Below are positions 5,413-24,973 of a DNA stretch of 30,853 nucleotides, in pieces (within the stretch, counting starts at the first letter, position 1; the number at the start of each line of letters is the position of its first letter). The notes beneath the pieces were generated by a model that ran no database searches, was not told where the DNA came from, and was given only the letters and a program-made list of their open reading frames with translations. The stretch lies in the IMG/VR virus record IMGVR_UViG_2619619129_000009; one strand, given 5' to 3'. Source of the DNA: a virus (taxonomy: Duplodnaviria; Heunggongvirae; Uroviricota; Caudoviricetes). Position numbers and translations under genes: made by a program.

Positions 5413-6603
5413 TTAATTGCTGTTAACCGAGGTGACCAGATTTGCCAGGTATTTATCGGTAATACGCTGGCGCAGGGTCAGGTTTTCAAGAGGAGGCACC
5501 GGTGTATAGTCGTAGTCGATATACAGTTTTCCGGCCTTGAGGGTTTCCGCATCGTTGGATTCTTCGCTGAACCAGCAGGTCGCATCCACAATATAGCCGT
5601 TTGTTTTCAGCTCACGGAATTTGGCATTGATGCCGTCAACGATGTCGCGAATCAGCGTTGCAGTGATGGGCTTGTCCACAGCCCACATGTGCGCCTCAGC
5701 CATCGTGTCGGCCAGCACCTGCGCGGTGCGGGTGTAGTTTTCAAAGAGGAACAGCGGGTCATCAGAGCAGGTACGGTTACCCCAGAAGCGGAAACCGTCA
5801 CGGCGAATCAGCGTTGTGACACCTGACTCGTTCAACAGGTCAGCATCAGTGCCGGACTCCTGCAAATCCCAGAATACAGAGGCACTGATGCCGGTAACAC
5901 CGTTTACCCCGACATTGGACAGCGTTTTATGCCAGCCCTGCTCCTGGTCGATTTTAGCGCGCAGACCCAGCGCACGGGCGGTGGCATACGCGGTGGCGGT
6001 GGTACTGGTGACCGTATCCCATGCGAGGAAATCCGGCCAGATGACCATCAGCTCACGCTGGCTGAAATTCTGGCGGTAAGCTTTCACCTCGGAAATGGTT
6101 TTACAGCCCCATGCGCTGATATATCCGAAAGCGCGCAGCTTCTGACAGACTGATGCCAGTGCAACAGCCACCTCTTTGGTATCCAGTCCCGGCACACCAA
6201 GAATACGCGGTTTAACACCGGTTACCGACTCCGCCGCCAGCAGGGCTTTCAGTCCGGTGTACTGACCGTTTTCGTCAGTGGTGCCGATGATATTGGAAAC
6301 GGTCTGCGCGAGTTTCGCTTCCTCGTCGTCGCCGGTGCCGTCTTCCACACGCACGACAACGGTGACCGGTTTTGACTGGTCGGCGATGGCCTGCAACGAT
6401 ACCGCCAGCGTGCCTTTTTTACCGGCCTTTGCAATTGCGCTCTGCACATTGGTAATCAGCACCGGTTTATTGAGGGGGAAGGTTTCCGCATCCGCATCGC
6501 TGGCCGTGCAGACCATGCCGACAATGGCGGTGGATACGGTGGAAATGACGCGGGTGCCGTCGTTAATCTCCAGCACCTGCACGCCGTGATGATAGTCACT
6601 CAT
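5413..6603 (-). CDS. FI: Contractile tail sheath protein FI, 396 aa
   Basis: 396-aa ORF, matching P2 gpFI length and position. Confidence 0.9.
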   Translation of the reverse strand: MSDYHHGVQVLEINDGTRVISTVSTAIVGMVCTASDADAETFPLNKPVLITNVQSAIAKAGKKGTLAVSLQAIADQSKPVTVVVRVEDGTGDDEEAKLAQTVSNIIGTTDENGQYTGLKALLAAESVTGVKPRILGVPGLDTKEVAVALASVCQKLRAFGYISAWGCKTISEVKAYRQNFSQRELMVIWPDFLAWDTVTSTTATAYATARALGLRAKIDQEQGWHKTLSNVGVNGVTGISASVFWDLQESGTDADLLNESGVTTLIRRDGFRFWGNRTCSDDPLFLFENYTRTAQVLADTMAEAHMWAVDKPITATLIRDIVDGINAKFRELKTNGYIVDATCWFSEESNDAETLKAGKLYIDYDYTPVPPLENLTLRQRITDKYLANLVTSVNSN

Positions 6604-6662
6604 CCGTTTAACTCCGTGGTTAATGGGTGAGTGATATTTTCAGTTGTGCCGGAGATGTCAGG

Positions 6663-7262
6663 CTATTTGTCCCGGTTGGCTAAGGGATGACACAATTTAT
6701 TTTTTGTCACGGAGGCGGGGAATTTTTTATAGAGCGTGGACAGGCCAATATCAAAAATCAGTGCCACGCGTTGACGTGATTCCCCTGCAGCCAACAACCG
6801 CCCGGCCTGCTCCCACTCACTCGCGGTGAGTTTCGGACGTCTGCCATCAATACGACCTTTAGCTCTGGCCGCTTCCAGTCCGGCGCGAGTCCGCTCGACA
6901 ATGAGTTCTCGTTCCATTTCAGCCAGGGCACCCATCACATGAAAGAAAAAACGTCCCATCGGCGTGCTGGTATCAATGGCATCCGTCAGGCTGCGAAAAT
7001 TAACGCCGCGTTCGCGCAGTTCCTCAACCAGAATGACCAGATGCCGCATACTACGCCCCAGCCTGTCCAGCTTCCAGACCACCAGAGTGTCACCTGCTGA
7101 TAATGTTCTGAGCAGTTTTTTCAGTCCCGGTCGGTCGGACTTCGTGCCGCTGATTTTATCCTCAAAAATCAGTTCACATCCTGCACACTCCAGCGCATTA
7201 CGCTGCAATTCCGTGTTCTGGTCATTTGTTGACACGCGTACATAGCCAATAAGCATGAGCAT
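6663..7262 (-). CDS. Site-specific DNA invertase, serine recombinase of the Hin/Gin/Cin/Pin family
   Basis: N-terminus LIGYVRVSTNDQN...L.RLGRS is the resolvase/invertase catalytic signature with the active-site Ser in VRVSTNDQ; C-terminal HTH; lies next to an invertible tail-fibre segment. Confidence 0.85.
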   Translation of the reverse strand: MLMLIGYVRVSTNDQNTELQRNALECAGCELIFEDKISGTKSDRPGLKKLLRTLSAGDTLVVWKLDRLGRSMRHLVILVEELRERGVNFRSLTDAIDTSTPMGRFFFHVMGALAEMERELIVERTRAGLEAARAKGRIDGRRPKLTASEWEQAGRLLAAGESRQRVALIFDIGLSTLYKKFPASVTKNKLCHPLANRDK

Positions 7263-7311
7263 CCCCCTGAATAAAAACCGGAGATGATGCCAGTTGCCCG
7301 TTATCTCTGCA

Positions 7312-7337
7312 TTTTCATAAACGTTGGTTTAGGAGAA
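7312..7337. repeat. Left 26-bp inversion crossover site (hix/gix-like)
   Basis: TTTTCATAAACGTTGGTTTAGGAGAA resembles the hix/gix pattern (...AAACC..GGTTT...); matches the reverse complement of the right site at 19 of 26 positions. Confidence 0.6.
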
Positions 7338-7682
7338 GCGGCGAAAAGGGATGTGGGCACAGGAGATAATCAGATACCGGATATGGGAGCATTCGCTTCT
7401 GGTTCGGGATGGTTCAGGCTACCAGGTGGATATATTGTTCAGTTTGGCACTTTTTCAGGAAACACGACCCGCTTTATCAGTGGACACTTCCCTATACCAT
7501 TCCCTAATCAGCCGATGGTTTCAGTCAGTGTTATGTCTGATGCCGTTCAGTCAGACCCGTCGAATCCTGCCCAGCAGGTTTTGTCTGTAAATTTTGAACA
7601 TATCAGTAATTCAGCGTGGCGTGTGGCAACCAGTGATATCTCACAGCAATACAGATTCAGTTATATTTCGATAGGACGGTAG
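7338..7682 (+). CDS. Alternative tail-fibre C-terminal module (Sv'-like), silent in this orientation; expressed only after inversion fuses it to the constant part of H
   Basis: Open frame continuing from the left crossover site; shares the L-G-E codons at the crossover with H; followed by its own assembly chaperone. Confidence 0.55.
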   Translation, partial: AAKRDVGTGDNQIPDMGAFASGSGWFRLPGGYIVQFGTFSGNTTRFISGHFPIPFPNQPMVSVSVMSDAVQSDPSNPAQQVLSVNFEHISNSAWRVATSDISQQYRFSYISIGR

Positions 7683-7684
7683 AA

Positions 7685-8125
7685 ATGCAGAAATATATTT
7701 TCAGTGCCGATAAAAATGCGTTTTTCCCTGTGGAGCTTAAAATCGCTTATCAGGAATCCGGCGAATGGCCCGATGATGGAATCGAAATTGACGACACTGT
7801 TGCCGCCGAATTTATGAAGGAAGCACCAGAAGGAAAATACAGAGGTGTCATCGACGGAATGCCAGCATGGATTGATATTCCACCGCCAACTCATGAGGAA
7901 CAAATTGCCGCAGCCGAACTGGAAAAGCAGCAATTGATTAATCAGGTCAACGAATACATAAACAGTAAGCAATGGCCTGGTAAAGCGGCGATTGGTCGCC
8001 TGAAAGGTGAGGAACTGGCGCAATATAATTTGTGGCTGGATTATCTGGACGCACTGGAGCTGGTCGATACTTCCGGTGCGCCAGATATTGAATGGCCTAC
8101 GCCTCCGGCAGTTCAGGCCAGATGA
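7685..8125 (+). CDS. Tail fibre assembly protein (Tfa/U'-like), partner of the alternative fibre module
   Basis: 146-aa ORF whose C-terminus (WLDYLDALELVDTSGAPDIEWPTPP) parallels the C-terminus of the opposite-strand Tfa (VLDYIDAVTATDTSTAPDVIWPELP). Confidence 0.75.
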   Translation: MQKYIFSADKNAFFPVELKIAYQESGEWPDDGIEIDDTVAAEFMKEAPEGKYRGVIDGMPAWIDIPPPTHEEQIAAAELEKQQLINQVNEYINSKQWPGKAAIGRLKGEELAQYNLWLDYLDALELVDTSGAPDIEWPTPPAVQAR

Positions 8126-8699
8126 CGTCCGGCGCTGTGCTGGTATCTGTTGCCGTCACCGCGTCAATATAATCCAGCACAGCGTTAAGTCGGGTGTTTT
8201 CTGGCTGCGTCAGCTTCCGCCCGGCCTGTAATTTCAGTTGAATCAGACTGATGGAAGCCATTGCAGCATCAATCAGCGACTGGCGCTGTGCTTCTGCCGC
8301 TTCTACTGCGGCGCTATGCTGTGCCTCGGTATCCGTCACCCATTTCTCACCATCCCATTTATCGTATGGCGTTAATGGGGCGATAGTGGTTGTATTTTCA
8401 GGGTAATCACCCGGAACTGTGATTTCTTTGGTATCTCCCGTTTCGGTACTATAGACAACTTCACCGCGATGGTCTGGCACATATTCCCATGAATTTAAAT
8501 CTACAGAGCGACAGATTGCATAACCAGCTTTATGTGTACCTGGTGCATCCAAACAGGAACATGCCGGGATACCGACGCCGACAGCGAGATATTCAGTTGA
8601 TGTAGAAATATATTCCCGCGTTTCGCCATCATAGTTATGTACGATGATTTCCCCATCATTTAAAGCGTAACCGTCTTTTCCCAAAATAGCCTGTTCCAT
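8097..8699 (-). CDS. G: Tail fibre assembly protein G (Tfa), 200 aa
   Basis: Immediately downstream of H on the same strand; conserved Tfa C-terminal motif. Confidence 0.8.
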   Translation of the reverse strand: MEQAILGKDGYALNDGEIIVHNYDGETREYISTSTEYLAVGVGIPACSCLDAPGTHKAGYAICRSVDLNSWEYVPDHRGEVVYSTETGDTKEITVPGDYPENTTTIAPLTPYDKWDGEKWVTDTEAQHSAAVEAAEAQRQSLIDAAMASISLIQLKLQAGRKLTQPENTRLNAVLDYIDAVTATDTSTAPDVIWPELPEA

Positions 8700-9980
8700 T
8701 TATGCAGCCCTCACAATGTAGTTAAACGCAATGTTCCGAGGTCGAGTTTCCCCTGAAACTCTTGGAACCCCACCATTAAAAGCTCTACCAGAAATTTTAT
8801 TGATTAAATCACTATCACCAGTGAACTCCGCGCTTCCATCTGGAATTGCAACATTGCCTCCACCTGCACCAATAAATCGCAGTCTTATAGCTTTATGGCC
8901 GTGGTCTTGCAATGCGTCGCCTTGAACAGACAGAATAGTCCTTCCACTATCCACCCCACGCCCGTCATCCCATCCACGGATAAACTCACCGCGCAAATCT
9001 GGTAATTTTAACTCTGGGTAAGCCTTTGCCAGTTCCGGGTATTCTTCAGCAGAAAAAGCCGCACCATTGCATTTCAACCAGCCTGTTGGCGGAGTGGCTG
9101 AAGGCCACGGAACAGGCACCCCAACAGGTAATGCTGAGCCTTCTCCCAAATCAAGGTATGCGAGAAGACCGGCAACATCCTTTCCACTCAAATGAGTCAG
9201 CGTCTCATCCAGTGGCTGCTTACCTGACAGCGCATTGTTAATGGTGGTGCTGAATTTCGGGTCATTGTTAATGGCCGCGGCAATTTCTTTCAGTGTGTCC
9301 AGCGTGGCTGGCGCGCCGTTAATCAGAGCGGTAATAGCAGCCTGAACAAACTCAGTGGTCGCAATCCGCGTGGTGTTATTTCCTGCGGCAGGCGTCGGCG
9401 CTTTTGGTTCTCCGGTAAATGTCGGATTATGTTTCTGCGCATACTGGGTATGAGGGTCCTGTGCGGCAATGTGTTTGCTCATCTGGTCATCCACATACAG
9501 CCTTAATTCCAGGACTTCATCATCCACGTATTTACGGGTCGCCAGTACCACCGACGGGTCGATTTTCAGCGTGATAGCTTCGGTATTCGTGACAACCAGA
9601 ATCATGCGGATAGTCTGGGTACGACCACTGCCTTCCTGCAACTGCGGTTTGTACGTTTCCGGGCAGTTCGCCACCGCAATGAGTACGCCTTCATCATCAT
9701 AAAGCCCAATCTCACGGATCCAGAATCCGCCCTCGTTCTCAGGGATGATTTGCTCCGCAATAATCTGGCTCTGGTTGTTCGGGTCAACACTCAGAAGATT
9801 CAGCGGCGCGATGCGTTTCTGGTTAATCAGTTTTGTCTGTGCCGGGTCTGGTGTCGGCAAGACACCATTCGCATCACCAACGGCCATTTGCGTCAGATTC
9901 AGCTTACTGCCGAGCATCGTCGCGTTAGCCAGCCGTGCTGCGCCCTGATTAGTCAGAATGGCGTAGTATTTCACTGTCAT
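8700..9980 (-). CDS. H: Tail fibre protein H in its current orientation: constant N-terminal part (about residues 1-280) plus variable C-terminal module, 426 aa
   Basis: Position between I and G; the crossover site lies inside the gene at codons L278-G279-E280. Confidence 0.85.
   Translation of the reverse strand: MTVKYYAILTNQGAARLANATMLGSKLNLTQMAVGDANGVLPTPDPAQTKLINQKRIAPLNLLSVDPNNQSQIIAEQIIPENEGGFWIREIGLYDDEGVLIAVANCPETYKPQLQEGSGRTQTIRMILVVTNTEAITLKIDPSVVLATRKYVDDEVLELRLYVDDQMSKHIAAQDPHTQYAQKHNPTFTGEPKAPTPAAGNNTTRIATTEFVQAAITALINGAPATLDTLKEIAAAINNDPKFSTTINNALSGKQPLDETLTHLSGKDVAGLLAYLDLGEGSALPVGVPVPWPSATPPTGWLKCNGAAFSAEEYPELAKAYPELKLPDLRGEFIRGWDDGRGVDSGRTILSVQGDALQDHGHKAIRLRFIGAGGGNVAIPDGSAEFTGDSDLINKISGRAFNGGVPRVSGETRPRNIAFNYIVRAA
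9141..9166. repeat. Right 26-bp inversion crossover site, inside H
   Basis: TTCTCCCAAATCAAGGTATGCGAGAA; inverted relative to the left site, 19/26 identity; encodes the ...DLGE... junction in H. Confidence 0.6.
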
Positions 9981-10588
9981 GCGTTTACTCTCAGGTTATC
10001 AATTAAATGAATGGCCGAGGCCGGGAAATAATCCCCTCCGACAATAATGGCCTCCGGGGTGTAGGGATAAACCGTCAGGGCGTCGCCGTGATAGCATCCC
10101 GCACCGGCAAAAATGTTGCCGGTTGTACTTAAACTGATAGCCAGTCCCGTCATATGGCGGCTTGCCGGTTTTGCATCAGCAACGAGGCGCTCCAGCTCCT
10201 GATACATTTCCTCGGTAATACCCTGCTCAAGCACGCCAACAACGATACGGAACGTCCCCGGCTCCTCGTTGAGCTGCCACCACTCCCTCACCTCAATCAG
10301 ATAGCCGAGCGGCTCCACCACACGCCGGATTGCGCCTATAGTGCCCTTATGGCAGTGAATGAAATACGCATCGCGGATAACAGCGCGTTTTGTCGCTTCC
10401 GGCCACTTATCATCCCAGCGGTCAACCGAAAATGACCACGCCAGCCACGGCAGCAGATTTGCCGGGCAGGTGTCCGGGTTCCACAGCTCACGAATACTGA
10501 CCGGCGTTTTTTCAATTTCCGCACAGGCTTTTGCAGCGGCGACTTCAAGCGGTGATGAGCCGGTCGGCAGCAGGCGCGAATCACTCAT
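9977..10588 (-). CDS. I: Baseplate assembly protein I (203-aa ORF; true start may be internal)
   Basis: Position between J and H as in P2. Confidence 0.8.
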   Translation of the reverse strand: MSDSRLLPTGSSPLEVAAAKACAEIEKTPVSIRELWNPDTCPANLLPWLAWSFSVDRWDDKWPEATKRAVIRDAYFIHCHKGTIGAIRRVVEPLGYLIEVREWWQLNEEPGTFRIVVGVLEQGITEEMYQELERLVADAKPASRHMTGLAISLSTTGNIFAGAGCYHGDALTVYPYTPEAIIVGGDYFPASAIHLIDNLRVNA

Positions 10589-21908: not shown

Positions 21909-22093
21909 CGCCCGCTTCATGGGGCGTTTTTAATGCAGTTGCATGAACACTCCAAGAGCACACCATCGCTAGTGATAACTAACAATAAAAGCGACTTCTG
22001 ACGCATGCAAATCCATGCACATGATGGCATTTTTCATGATCTATGCGGTATGCTATCCGCTTCAATTTTTAACACTTGTTAAGGGAGCTAGAC

Positions 22094-23236
22094 ATGGACA
22101 TTATTGATTTAAAATCTCAACTAGAAAATGAAGATAATGCCAAGAAAAGAGCAGAGTTGCTTGCTCAGCTAGAGGTGATAAAGCAAAACGCTGAAGAGCA
22201 AATTCGTGCTGAGCAAAAGGATGTGGATTTTGAGACCAAAGAATTTACCGTTGAGTTATTAGTTAATAAGTATCATAGCGGATTAGAGGATGATACTAAC
22301 GAACTCTTTGTTCCTGATTATCAAAGGGATTTTGTTTGGAGTGAAAAAAGACAATCAAGATTGATAGAGTCTTTGATTTTGGGTTTTCCTATACCATATA
22401 TATTTACAGCAGATGTTCTCTCCGAAGATCCCGATTTAGATGGGCGAATTGAGATTGTTGATGGCTCACAGCGAGTTAGGACTATACACGCTTTTATCCA
22501 AAATGAATTAGTTTTACAAGATCTGAAATCTTTAGACGCCCTTAATGGTTTCAAATTCCAAGATTTACCATTATCACGTCAACGTCGTTTCATGAGAATT
22601 CCTGTCCGCGTTATAGAATTGAGTTCTAAATGCAATGAAGAAACCCGTAGAGATCTTTTTGAACGTATTAACTCTGGCAGCGATATATTGAAAGATATGG
22701 AAGTCCGTAAAGGATCAGAACTTGGTTCAACAAATTTATATACACAGGTTATTAAGCCATGCTCAACAATACCTAAATTTAAAGAATTAGCCCCTTTATC
22801 TCAGACTAAAGAAAAACGAGATGAACGGTTAGAATTTACATTAAGATTCTTTGCCTACTTAGATAAGTACAAGAACTTTGATCATTCCGTACGGGATTTT
22901 CTAAATGACTATATGTTAGAAAATCGAGATATAGACGAAACTAAACAAAACTCAATGAAACAAGAGTTTGCTAATGTTCTATCTTTTGTTGATAACTATT
23001 TCCCAGCAGGATTCAAGAAAACTATTACTGCAAAATCTACACCTCGAGTTAGATTCGAATCTCTCGCTGTTGGCGCAGCACTTGCATTACGTGAAATCCC
23101 TGACCTTGTTCCCAAGAACTTGGATTGGCTAAGCTCAGAAGAATTCAAACGATTGACCACTTCAGACGGAGCTAATAGTCGCGTGAAGGTAATTGAACGA
23201 ATTGAATATGTTCGGGATAAATTATTAGAGGATTAA
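22094..23236 (+). CDS. DUF262 (ParB-like / GmrSD N-terminal domain) protein, about 380 aa; candidate defence NTPase/nicking component
   Basis: Motifs PDYQRDFVW and IVDGSQRVRT (DGQQR-like) seen in the translation; start chosen at the ATG 8 nt after an AGGGAG Shine-Dalgarno; AT-rich relative to the phage backbone. Confidence 0.7.
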   Translation: MDIIDLKSQLENEDNAKKRAELLAQLEVIKQNAEEQIRAEQKDVDFETKEFTVELLVNKYHSGLEDDTNELFVPDYQRDFVWSEKRQSRLIESLILGFPIPYIFTADVLSEDPDLDGRIEIVDGSQRVRTIHAFIQNELVLQDLKSLDALNGFKFQDLPLSRQRRFMRIPVRVIELSSKCNEETRRDLFERINSGSDILKDMEVRKGSELGSTNLYTQVIKPCSTIPKFKELAPLSQTKEKRDERLEFTLRFFAYLDKYKNFDHSVRDFLNDYMLENRDIDETKQNSMKQEFANVLSFVDNYFPAGFKKTITAKSTPRVRFESLAVGAALALREIPDLVPKNLDWLSSEEFKRLTTSDGANSRVKVIERIEYVRDKLLED

Positions 23237-23237
23237 C

Positions 23238-23918
23238 ATGGATCGTTTTCGTGAGGATTTTGACGAAAGGTCAGGAGAGATCTTGGCCTATTTAGATCTT
23301 TTGAAATTTATTGAGTATGCCGGTGCAGAACTGATATCATCTGATGATAAAGAACATAAGTTCTCCATTACTGCTCAATCACGAAAAACTCTAAAGGGGG
23401 CAGTATATATTCTATTATATAACCTCATTGAATCAACAATGAGAGAAGCTATCTGCCTTATTCATGAGACTATTTATGATAGAAACGTAGAATTTGACAA
23501 ACTCAGGAAAAATATCAGGTCAGAAATATTAAAAAGATTAAAAAATGAATCTGTAAATATTGAAAGTTTAGTTAACCGTCTTACTAAAGGTATATCTTGC
23601 GGTATATCTTATGGCACTTTCAACAAAAAGAAAATATTCTCAGGAAATATTGATAGAGAGGAAATCAAAGAAAAATCGAAAATATATGGTTTTTCAACAT
23701 ATTCTGATTACACTCACACTAAACATGGTGAAAAATTAGCCACTGTCAAACAACATCGTAATGATTTATCTCATGGCAATGTATCATTTGCTGAGATTGG
23801 AAAAAATGTTTCATATCAGGACTTAGAGAATATTTCATTAGAAGTAATCGCCTATCTTGATGCAATCGCGAATAATATAGAGCACTATATAAATAATAAT
23901 GAATATTTAGAACAATAG
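23238..23918 (+). CDS. HEPN-like putative nuclease, 226 aa, translationally coupled to the DUF262 gene
   Basis: C-terminal HRNDLSHG contains an R-x4-H HEPN-type motif; start codon 1 nt after the upstream stop with a GAGGA RBS; family assignment is from recalled pattern, not a search. Confidence 0.5.
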   Translation: MDRFREDFDERSGEILAYLDLLKFIEYAGAELISSDDKEHKFSITAQSRKTLKGAVYILLYNLIESTMREAICLIHETIYDRNVEFDKLRKNIRSEILKRLKNESVNIESLVNRLTKGISCGISYGTFNKKKIFSGNIDREEIKEKSKIYGFSTYSDYTHTKHGEKLATVKQHRNDLSHGNVSFAEIGKNVSYQDLENISLEVIAYLDAIANNIEHYINNNEYLEQ

Positions 23919-23924
23919 TAATAA

Positions 23925-23947
23925 GGCCTGCAAAGCAGGCCATTTTA
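23925..23947. terminator. Bidirectional rho-independent terminator between the convergent HEPN and methyltransferase genes
   Basis: Perfect stem ggcctgc / gcaggcc with loop aaa, flanked by T-rich runs on both strands. Confidence 0.65.
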
Positions 23948-24973
23948 TCATTCTAAATGGTTCTTGATTGATTGCCCAATTGCTTTTCCTAGTTCCACAG
24001 GAACAGCATTACCTATCATTTTCCCAATACTTCTTATAACAAACTTGTCTTTGTCTTCTACAAAGATATAATCCATCGGAAAAGTTTGCAATAAAGCAGC
24101 CTCTCTAAGAGAAATCGCTCTATGCTGTTCTGGATGTCCAAAACGTCCATTTCCGAAACCATAACAAAGAGTTGTAATTGTTGGACTCGGCTTATCCCAA
24201 GACATGCGCCCATATACACTAGCATATCCTTTACCGCTAGATTTCATATGACAAGCAGCAATCAGCTCCTTCGGCCAGTCCTTCCATGTACCACCAGGAA
24301 CAGAGTGTATAATTCTTTTTTTATTAATCGGATTTAATTTACTGGCTCTATGTAATATATCATTTGGATCTGTTTGGCCATCTTCTAACGGAGGAAGATT
24401 TCCTATTGCATCTCTAACTGTTTTCAAAATAACATCGTCACGTTTTACTAACTCAATCGCCCCCAATTTTGAAGCCAACAATACATGACGGGAACGGTTT
24501 TGTGGGATTCCATATTCGACACAATCAACCTTCGACGCCCAAACATAATAGCCCAACTTTAACAATGAATTATAAAAATCATTATAAACTTTATGTTTAG
24601 TTACATCAGGAACGTTCTCCATTGTTACGATTTCTGGAGATACTTCGCGAATTAAACGTTCGAACTCATAAAGAAGAGGCCATTTTTTATCATCAGCCTT
24701 ATCTTTTCCTTGAGTATATTTTGAAAAAGGTTGGCAAGGTGCGCATCCTGCCAATACTTTTACAGACGCATCACCATAAAGCCTCAGCAGTTCCTCTTTT
24801 GTTACTTTAGCGATATCTTGCTCAATAAACTTAGATTTATTGTTTCTTTCATAGGGAAACCGACATTCCCCCTCAAGGTCTATGCCTGCAACGACATCAA
24901 GCCCCGCAAGCTGTAAACCATGAGTTAATCCGCCAGCACCACAAAAAAGGTCTATCACCTTTACAGTCATCAT
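23948..24973 (-). CDS. DNA (cytosine-5)-methyltransferase, 341 aa
   Basis: Motif I DLFCGAGG, motif IV GCAPCQPFS (catalytic Pro-Cys), motif VI ENV (TMENVPD) seen in the translation. Confidence 0.85.
   Translation of the reverse strand: MMTVKVIDLFCGAGGLTHGLQLAGLDVVAGIDLEGECRFPYERNNKSKFIEQDIAKVTKEELLRLYGDASVKVLAGCAPCQPFSKYTQGKDKADDKKWPLLYEFERLIREVSPEIVTMENVPDVTKHKVYNDFYNSLLKLGYYVWASKVDCVEYGIPQNRSRHVLLASKLGAIELVKRDDVILKTVRDAIGNLPPLEDGQTDPNDILHRASKLNPINKKRIIHSVPGGTWKDWPKELIAACHMKSSGKGYASVYGRMSWDKPSPTITTLCYGFGNGRFGHPEQHRAISLREAALLQTFPMDYIFVEDKDKFVIRSIGKMIGNAVPVELGKAIGQSIKNHLE

Follow-up and report, generated by a model that had tools for sequence, protein, structure and literature searches.

The closest known systems to the locus analysed here include two invertible segments of Escherichia coli, that of the e14 element of strain K-12 and that of a P2-type locus of EPEC strain E2348/69. 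The P-segment of e14, whose genes are pinE, stfE/tfaE and ycfK(stfP)/tfaP, flips in culture (PMC4272514); our statements on the original mapping of pix are based on the K-12 record and on the same paper. At the EPEC locus (L136), which is homologous to ours, the segment measures 1,888 bp (2977580-2979467; PMC4272514, Table S1) and clonal cultures contain both of its orientations side by side (main text and Table S1 of PMC4272514). The Hin invertase, known from flagellar phase variation in Salmonella, cuts within the centre of its hix sites (PMC2724282), and its Fis-bound enhancer lies within hin itself, separated by about 100 bp from the closest site (PMC3798978, PMC2724282).

The DNA considered here, a stretch of 30,853 bp that we refer to as the window, very probably belongs to a P2-like (Peduovirus-type) prophage in which an invertase of the Pin/Cin/Gin type flips a 1.83-kb cassette to swap the ends of the H tail fibre together with their chaperones.

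Results

The crossover sites

The left crossover site, which is pix/cix-like, occupies positions 7312-7337 on the plus strand and reads TTTTCATAAACGTTGGTTTAGGAGAA, that is, TTTTCATAAACG TT GGTTTAGGAGAA. Its outer half (7312-7323) remains with the invertase flank upon inversion, while its inner half (7326-7337) is part of the invertible segment. The right site, at 9141-9166, is oriented on the minus strand: its plus-strand letters are TTCTCCCAAATCAAGGTATGCGAGAA, with the reverse complement TTCTCGCATACCTTGATTTGGGAGAA, and read on the minus strand it consists of TTCTCGCATACC TT GATTTGGGAGAA. The central dinucleotide TT is identical in both sites, as religation after a 180-degree rotation requires (7324-7325 on the left; 9153-9154 on the right, where the plus strand shows the complement AA). 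An earlier note on this DNA had described the two sites as inverted and matching at 19 of 26 positions, and its coordinates and letters proved exact; the pair is also the longest inverted repeat found by a repeat search of positions 6600-10000.

A match of 19/26 is by itself at chance level, since shuffling this 3.4-kb region yields about six windows with at least 19/26 identities, the best reaching 19-21. The significance of the sites comes from the fit of both to the palindromic consensus of Hin/Gin/Cin/Pin invertase sites. A scan with this consensus (TTNTCNNAAACCNNGGTTTNNGANAA), allowing up to three mismatches, gave exactly two matches in the 30,853 bp, where 0.03 were expected; both are the sites described above, with one mismatch in the left site and two in the right, and none of 100 shuffled sequences reached two matches. 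Alignment to hix, gix, cix and pix, a check that the note had recommended, showed that both sites fit this group, the nearest being the pix of e14. The observation of the paired sites is confirmed. The shared core TT(A/G)GGAGAA is indeed present but corresponds to the end of the inner half-site and is not the point of exchange. A scan of genome contigs for further site alleles with the 15-mer TTGGTTTRGGAGAAG returned only chance matches in unrelated phyla, this pattern being too short for 596 Gb.

It could be argued that the inverted repeat amounts to a Leu-Gly-Glu coding motif shared by two diverged fibre modules, plus some chance likeness, with no recombination site at all. Such a reading would account for the chance-level inverted match within 3.4 kb and for the overlap of the matching part with conserved codons. 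However, the fit to the palindromic consensus, of which 0.03 instances were expected, also covers the outer halves, which are non-coding-like, and the left outer half lies outside any started fibre reading frame. An invertase gene, moreover, adjoins the left site, and the exact natural inversions ending in the sites that are described below refute the coding-motif explanation, to which we accord practically no probability.

The fibre cassette and its reading frames

The invertible segment, as delimited by in-silico and natural inversions, extends from central dinucleotide to central dinucleotide (7324-9154; 1,831 bp). H, as the tail-fibre gene is called in P2 nomenclature, is found at 8700-9980 on the minus strand and encodes 426 aa. 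Its constant N-terminal part, residues 1-276 (9155-9980, minus strand), lies outside the segment and matches the Pfam family Phage_tail_fib over residues 1-150 (1.4e-62). The currently expressed variable C-terminal part (8700-9152, minus strand) lies within the segment, matches Pfam Collar over residues 287-334 (7.2e-15) and has 89% DNA identity to stfE of e14. The currently expressed tail-fibre assembly gene, which is TfaE-like (8097-8699, minus strand; Pfam Caudo_TAP, 2.5e-31), has about 91% DNA identity to tfaE of the same element.

The silent set is encoded on the plus strand and comprises an alternative fibre C-terminal module (7329-7682; Pfam Gp53-like_C, 1.9e-09) and its own tail-fibre assembly (chaperone) gene (7685-8125; Pfam Caudo_TAP, 1.2e-34), the 3' ends of the two chaperone genes overlapping by 29 nt. 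The alternative module has no start of its own, and the ATG at 7284, upstream of the site, is an artefact of ORF finding or annotation. In NCBIfam, the fibre and chaperone proteins had no match and the invertase only sub-threshold ones. RefSeq relatives label the silent cassette as a free-standing 'gp53-like domain-containing protein', with an ATG upstream of the crossover site.

Inversion of 7324-9154 in silico, followed by translation as the note had advised, produced an open, in-frame fusion: H becomes an uninterrupted protein of 394 aa (...LLAYLGLGEAAKRD...), in which the alternative module is joined in frame to residues 1-276 and no stop codon intervenes, and the chaperone gene at 7685-8125, encoding 146 aa, comes to lie directly downstream. 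The constant part of H is the same in both in-silico products, and the two states are a 426-aa H with a 200-aa chaperone or a 394-aa H with a 146-aa chaperone. In its build the locus matches the invertible tail-fibre cassettes of Mu, P1, e14 and P2-type prophages: the N-terminus of the fibre is constant and encoded outside the segment, which itself holds both C-terminal modules, with a Caudo_TAP gene behind each and the frame kept in either orientation. Relatives with the flipped arrangement have this 394-aa fusion annotated as the tail protein. The interpretation originally put forward, that inversion swaps the fibre C-terminus while preserving the reading frame, is thereby supported.

Both sites had also been said to encode Leu-Gly-Glu in frame, and this is what we see: residues 278-280 of H are LGE, and the plus-strand ORF across the left site reads ...NVGLGEAAK... 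in frame. The tripeptide is encoded by the inner half-site and moves with each module; every module starts with Leu-Gly-Glu because the inner half-site reads so in the fibre frame. Residue 277, which immediately precedes it, changes with orientation, from Asp to Gly in the window. The proposal that the recombination joint sits at the L-G-E codons was right as to the location of the sites, but the joint does not fall within the Gly and Glu codons and lies a few bases upstream.

Natural inversions and the point of exchange

Among complete E. coli genomes covering at least 80% of the locus, 30 have it in the orientation of the window and 25 in the orientation obtained by in-silico flipping. Three pairs of loci are related by an exact inversion. 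L001 and L002, from strains isolated in China and Switzerland, are identical over 6,507 bp save for the inversion; L005 and L006, two prophage copies in one genome, are likewise identical over 6,453 bp; and L011 and L135 form a pair over 3,450 bp. L007 and L008 were rejected as a further pair, having additional differences elsewhere. The two genome orientations, the three exact pairs and the phase variation of the EPEC locus establish that the segment inverts, at the level of the locus family. The predicted unflipped junction was found at 90/90 in seven genomes. Neither the predicted recombinant junctions of the window (A20 left, A16 right) nor its present left junction had an exact match in the genome collection, and the window is thus without a flipped partner there.

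The inversions seen among genomes might instead have arisen through RecA homologous recombination at short inverted repeats, independently of the adjacent invertase. In relatives the repeats do have 14-16 identical bases, and prophage fibre regions are highly mosaic, but an identity of about 15 bp is far below what makes an efficient RecA substrate. The approximately 1:1 ratio of orientations and their coexistence in clonal cultures at the homologous locus (PMC4272514) imply high-frequency switching, and the breakpoints fall in that part of the canonical sites which includes the centre, next to an intact invertase. We consider recombination by RecA to be very unlikely and attribute the inversions to the invertase.

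The L011/L135 pair places the breakpoints within site positions 13-19 (TTGGTTT, including the central TT), a resolution of 7 nt; what confines the exchange to this interval is an A/G polymorphism at position 20, which travels with the module, the outer halves keeping to their flanks. Position 19 is two bases into the Leu codon. Among relatives, the outer halves are unchanged in both orientations and never move. The possibility that the A20 allele, present in the window, L009 and L011, stays with the left flank was ruled out by the XH989/EC15 pair, which shows that it moves with the module. The most probable point of crossover is the central TT (positions 13-14), which precedes the Leu codon by 3 nt, as suggested by the mechanism of the invertase family, by Hin biochemistry and by the P1 record, where the crossover in cixL and cixR is annotated as falling between the two T's at the centre.

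The invertase gene and a predicted Fis enhancer

The serine DNA invertase gene (6663-7256, minus strand; 197 aa from the ATG at 7256) adjoins the left site and is transcribed away from the invertible segment. The start proposed by the ORF finder, at 7262, would add 2 aa; in RefSeq relatives the annotated gene begins at the second ATG. The protein has the Pfam domains Resolvase (3e-52) and HTH_7 (5.6e-13) and is 87% identical to PinE of e14, 82% to the invertase of the EPEC P2 remnant, and 80% to both Cin of P1 and Gin of Mu. Its ORF is intact, and the catalytic motifs YVRVSTNDQ and DRLGR are invariant with respect to Cin and Gin. A simple scan of 7257-7345 for sigma-70-like sequences revealed no convincing invertase promoter. 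Rci shufflons rely on a tyrosine recombinase and 19-bp sfx repeats. Both a shufflon (Rci) and multiple inversion of the Min type (p15B Min, EPEC three-site) were ruled out for the window, which has two sites only and a serine recombinase.

The earlier note had suggested searching the 5' end of the invertase gene for a Fis-binding recombinational enhancer. Homology predicts one at 7167-7238 (minus strand), within invertase codons 7-30, where 55/72 positions are identical to the annotated enhancer of P1 cin and 55/72 to Mu gin. This stretch contains two Fis-like G-N13-C 15-mers, at 7221-7235 (GTGTCAACAAATGAC) and 7172-7186 (GTGCAGGATGTGAAC), both of which have counterparts at identical gene positions in Mu gin. 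Measured from centre to centre, the first 15-mer and the left site are 96.5 bp apart; the corresponding distance is 95.5 bp in Mu gin, in pinE of e14 and in the EPEC P2 remnant. Homology to the P1 cin enhancer thus argues for the predicted element, but the same bases encode a conserved catalytic motif and are under coding constraint, so that their conservation is not independent evidence of an enhancer.

A private change in the right site

At position 16, the right site has a private G-to-A change (C to T at plus-strand position 9151) that results in Gly277Asp in H. Over 90 nt, nothing else distinguishes the window from its nearest relative, and a search of 5,426 complete E. coli genomes found no exact match to the right site of the window. 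A16 lies at a distance of 3 bp from the site's centre and breaks the GG at positions 15-16, which is otherwise invariant in relatives, cix, gix and pix.

These properties of A16, namely its being the sole difference from the nearest relative, its absence from the complete E. coli genomes and its disruption of an invariant GG, could indicate that the locus is a true switch by descent whose present copy has been locked or strongly attenuated by impaired synapsis or cleavage, leaving the fibre fixed as collar-type with Asp277. On the other hand, the central dinucleotides are still identical, and the invertase reading frame is unbroken and retains every conserved motif. Natural hixR, furthermore, departs from the consensus at inner positions and is nevertheless functional, and the contacts of the DNA-binding domain are further out in the half-site. 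A locked or strongly attenuated copy thus appears unlikely, though not negligibly so, and we favour the reading in which the present copy would still flip, as the behaviour of its family leads one to expect. That A16 might act as a natural lock or rate-modifying mutation, biasing or freezing the switch in the collar-type state, is a speculation in which we place only low confidence. If true, A16 would be a natural allele for studying the effects of a base 3 bp from the cleavage centre on serine-invertase catalysis.

Discussion

H is made up of a constant 5' part and an invertible cassette holding two convergent fibre-end/chaperone sets, and our analysis suggests a mechanism for its switching. 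The invertase, encoded just outside the cassette, would bind the two 26-bp imperfect palindromes as dimers. Its activator would most likely be host Fis, acting from an enhancer that lies within the initial ~90 bp of the invertase gene, some 100 bp from the left site. Both sites would be cut at the central TT with a 2-nt stagger, after which one pair of subunits would rotate by 180 degrees and the strands would be religated, each flip linking the other module, in frame, to codons 1-276 of H. By analogy with other members of the family, a lysogen population would be expected to release two types of particle differing in receptor specificity. Acting in trans, the invertase could also recombine pix, gix, cix or hix sites located elsewhere in the cell.

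Host-range switches of this kind are already well known in phages, and the locus, an ordinary example, has little significance beyond annotation, where it should be viewed as a single phase-variable fibre gene that has a choice of two 3' cassettes. The pair of loci that confines the exchange to TTGGTTT provides comparative support for exchange at the centre of the site in the P2-type group and leaves the mechanism unchanged.

The e14 element resembles the window in its invertase-side site, which has the outer half TTTTCATAAACG and a central TT, and in its layout, in which about 55 bp separate the site from the 5' end of the invertase gene. The fibre parts are also close, with 91% DNA identity for tfaE and 89% for the collar-type end. 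The inner half-site differs, being GGTTTGGGAGAA in e14 and GGTTT(A/G)GGAGAA in the window and its relatives, as does the second module, StfP/TfaP in e14 and gp53-like in the window; the private A at right-site position 16 further sets the window apart. Whereas e14 is a lambdoid remnant, the window contains a complete-looking P2-type prophage with an intact constant part of H. The P2-type locus of EPEC E2348/69 has the same succession of sheath, invertase, site, two convergent fibre-end/chaperone sets and site (PMC4272514), its modules having 89-91% DNA identity to those of the window and its invertase 82%; the EPEC sites are TTTTCTTAAACGTTGGTTTGGGAGAA and ...CCCTTGGTTTGGGAGAA. This EPEC copy, at 2.977 Mb, is however a remnant, with a truncated integrase gene in place of the constant part of H, and the other EPEC P2 locus has three sites and four states, compared to two sites in the window.

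The Cin/cix system of P1 and the Gin/gix system of Mu share with the window invertases that are 80% identical, 26-bp sites and the same half-site consensus; in the same register, the inner halves encode Leu-Arg-Glu in P1, Leu-Gln-Glu in Mu and Leu-Gly-Glu in the window. They also have in common the alternative S/U versus S'/U' logic. P1 and Mu carry an enhancer towards the 5' end of the invertase gene, where one is predicted for the window, and both the layout of Mu gin and its site-to-enhancer spacing (95.5 bp) resemble those of the window (96.5 bp to the predicted enhancer). P1 and Mu nonetheless belong to different phage families from the window, and their segments, of 4.2 kb and 3 kb respectively, are larger. 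In P1, cin is transcribed towards the segment and cixL overlaps the 3' end of cin, unlike in the window, and in Mu the central dinucleotide is TC instead of TT. Lastly, Hin belongs to the same recombinase subfamily and acts on 26-bp sites but, unlike the invertase of the window, it flips a promoter, its gene is located inside the segment, and no coding modules are recombined.

Two fibre modules in a P2-like tail gene block

The region belongs to the tail genes of a P2-like prophage. Read from high coordinates to low, its minus strand carries the genes for tail protein I (9977-10588), the 426-aa fibre protein H (8700-9980; Phage_tail_fib N-terminal domain and Collar domain), a fibre-assembly protein (8097-8699; Caudo_TAP), a serine recombinase situated beyond the invertible segment (6663-7256/7262; Resolvase and HTH_7) and the tail sheath (5413-6603). 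Facing them on the plus strand are an ORF encoding a gp53-like fibre C-terminal domain (7284-7682) and a second fibre-assembly (chaperone) gene (7685-8125; Caudo_TAP). When 7324-9154, the stretch that begins and ends with a central dinucleotide of the two crossover sites, is inverted in silico, H codons 1-276 run on into the plus-strand module with no intervening stop codon, yielding a 394-aa H (...LLAYL|GLGEAAKRDVG...) followed 2 nt past its stop codon by a 146-aa chaperone gene, while the collar module and its chaperone become silent and adjoin the invertase. Because the fusion is open, with neither a frameshift nor a stop at the joint, the proposal of the earlier note that inversion would exchange the fibre C-terminus in frame holds.

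The convergent chaperone genes share 29 nt at their 3' ends (8097-8125), and just past the end of the plus-strand chaperone gene is a 23-nt inverted repeat (8133-8155 / 8162-8184, 78% complementary) that could serve as a terminator for whichever fibre/chaperone set is expressed. Between the left site and the start codon of the invertase, on the minus strand, a weak terminator-like hairpin followed by a T-run (7276-7295) might keep transcription leaving the segment from running into the invertase. In RefSeq relatives the silent cassette is annotated as a CDS of its own, either 'gp53-like domain-containing protein' or 'phage tail protein', with an ATG upstream of the crossover site and a reading frame that passes through it (2185-2583 both in L002, the Swiss locus of an exact-inversion pair, and in L009, a further relative locus; window 7284-7328). 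This stand-alone CDS is an artefact of how an invertible gene fragment was annotated.

The remaining window carries P2-type terminase, portal, gpA replication and integrase genes. The P2 'old/tin' hotspot (22076-24973), which lies between portal and gpA, holds three cargo genes: a GmrSD_N (DUF262) protein (PADLOC NsnA 2e-54, PD-T4-2_A 5e-35), next to it a HEPN protein (MAE_28990-like, 2.8e-29) and, on the strand opposite to these two, a C-5 cytosine DNA methylase. The set has the appearance of a PD-T4-2-like defence pair accompanied by a methylase.

Crossover sites and natural inversions

The two 26-mers originally proposed as crossover sites, 7312-7337 (left, beside the invertase) and 9141-9166 (right, in H), were quoted exactly; they are inverted, match at 19 of 26 positions and each read Leu-Gly-Glu in the frame of their own fibre module (H residues 278-280). 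An inverted 19/26 match is unremarkable by itself, as a shuffled 3.4-kb region gives on average about 6 windows at this level, with best scores of 19-21. As imperfect palindromes, both sites conform to the consensus for invertase sites, TTNTCNNAAACCNNGGTTTNNGANAA, and a search allowing up to 3 mismatches returned exactly two matches in the 30,853-bp window, the two sites themselves, against an expectation of 0.03. The central dinucleotide (positions 13-14), read in the direction of the segment, is TT in both.

Both orientations occur in nature. A megablast search of 5,426 complete E. coli genomes with 6600-10050 as query found the window arrangement in 30 genomes (at least 80% coverage) and the in-silico flipped query in 25. 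Strains E-93 (China) and BS74R-D (Switzerland) are base-for-base identical over 6,507 bp apart from the exact inversion, and isolate F163 (NZ_OY754349.1) carries two copies of the prophage region, at 4.64 Mb and 1.77 Mb, that are identical over 6,453 bp with the fibre segment in opposite orientations. The predicted unflipped junction has a 90/90 match in seven genomes. Whichever way the segment points, in all loci read the outer half-site next to the invertase is TTTTCATAAACG and that next to H is TTCTCGCATACC, each remaining with its flank. In a homologous P2-type locus of EPEC E2348/69, at 2,977,580-2,979,467, both orientations are reported to coexist in clonal cultures, the forward one at 93 ± 4% (PMC4272514, text and Table S1); the locus boundaries coincide with the central dinucleotide of either site.

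The pair XH989 and EC15, identical over 3,450 bp except for the exact inversion, is informative because their two inner half-sites, on the segment side, differ at position 20 (TTA versus TTG, both Leu). This polymorphism travels with the module, and exchange must therefore have taken place within site positions 13-19, TTGGTTT. In EC15 (NZ_CP060919.1, L135 2271-3756), an IS26 insertion truncates the constant part of H, which is now joined to rhaS; both the invertible cassette and the invertase remain intact, and their orientation is the reverse of that in XH989, likewise a Hangzhou isolate.

The earlier note had placed the joint at the Leu-Gly-Glu codons, essentially correctly though a few nucleotides out. 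These codons span site positions 18-26, and the XH989/EC15 pair excludes exchange at positions 20-26; since, in addition, the P1 record sets the crossover in cixL and cixR between the two T's at the centre, and Hin is described as cutting inside the centre of hix (PMC2724282), the joint is placed in codon 276 (CTT). The first codon to switch is 277, GAT (Asp) in the expressed form of the window and GGT (Gly) after inversion. Leu-Gly-Glu comes from translating the inner half-site, whose counterparts, read in this register, give Leu-Arg-Glu in P1 and Leu-Gln-Glu in Mu.

Position 16 of the right site (window 9151) is A, versus G in every relative and in cix, gix and pix. This G-to-A change on the H coding strand converts Gly277 to Asp and, over 90 nt, is all that separates the window from the nearest genome; no such variant of the right site was present in the 5,426 complete E. 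coli genomes, and the window's left junction (position-20 A with this flank and module) had no exact match in the E. coli collection. A change at so constant a base might have locked this copy or attenuated its inversion, a reading that we consider quite improbable.

The invertase and its predicted enhancer

The invertase has intact catalytic motifs. Its identity to PinE of e14 is 87%, to the EPEC P2-remnant invertase 82%, and to P1 Cin and Mu Gin 80% each. The e14 DNA that runs from the 5' part of pinE across the spacer to the neighbouring pix site aligns with 6873-7338 at 86%, and the outer half of pix is identical to that of the window. The Cin enhancer is annotated in the P1 record at cin nucleotides 19-90. 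Its equivalent here, 7167-7238, is a predicted enhancer by homology: it is identical to P1 at 55/72 positions and to Mu at 55/72, conservation that is not independent evidence because the catalytic Ser motif is encoded by these bases too. The stretch holds two G-N13-C 15-mers whose positions in the gene match those in Mu gin. The one closer to the site has its centre 96.5 bp from the site centre, compared to 95.5 bp in Mu, e14 and EPEC; the enhancer-site spacing in the Hin system is about 100 bp (PMC3798978).

Relation to known systems

The finding first made from the sequence is correct and the mechanism well supported: the locus belongs to the classical family of enhancer-dependent invertases, here put to use in switching tail fibres. 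A multiple-inversion system is ruled out because the window has just two sites. A tail-fibre switch of this kind is already known; the invertase and both chaperones appear as annotations in phage records of 93-97% identity, and a recent survey remarks on invertases and inverted neighbours at this P2 hotspot (bioRxiv 10.1101/2024.10.15.618418). The closest systems are Pin/pix of e14 and the P2-type prophage loci shown to phase-vary in EPEC.
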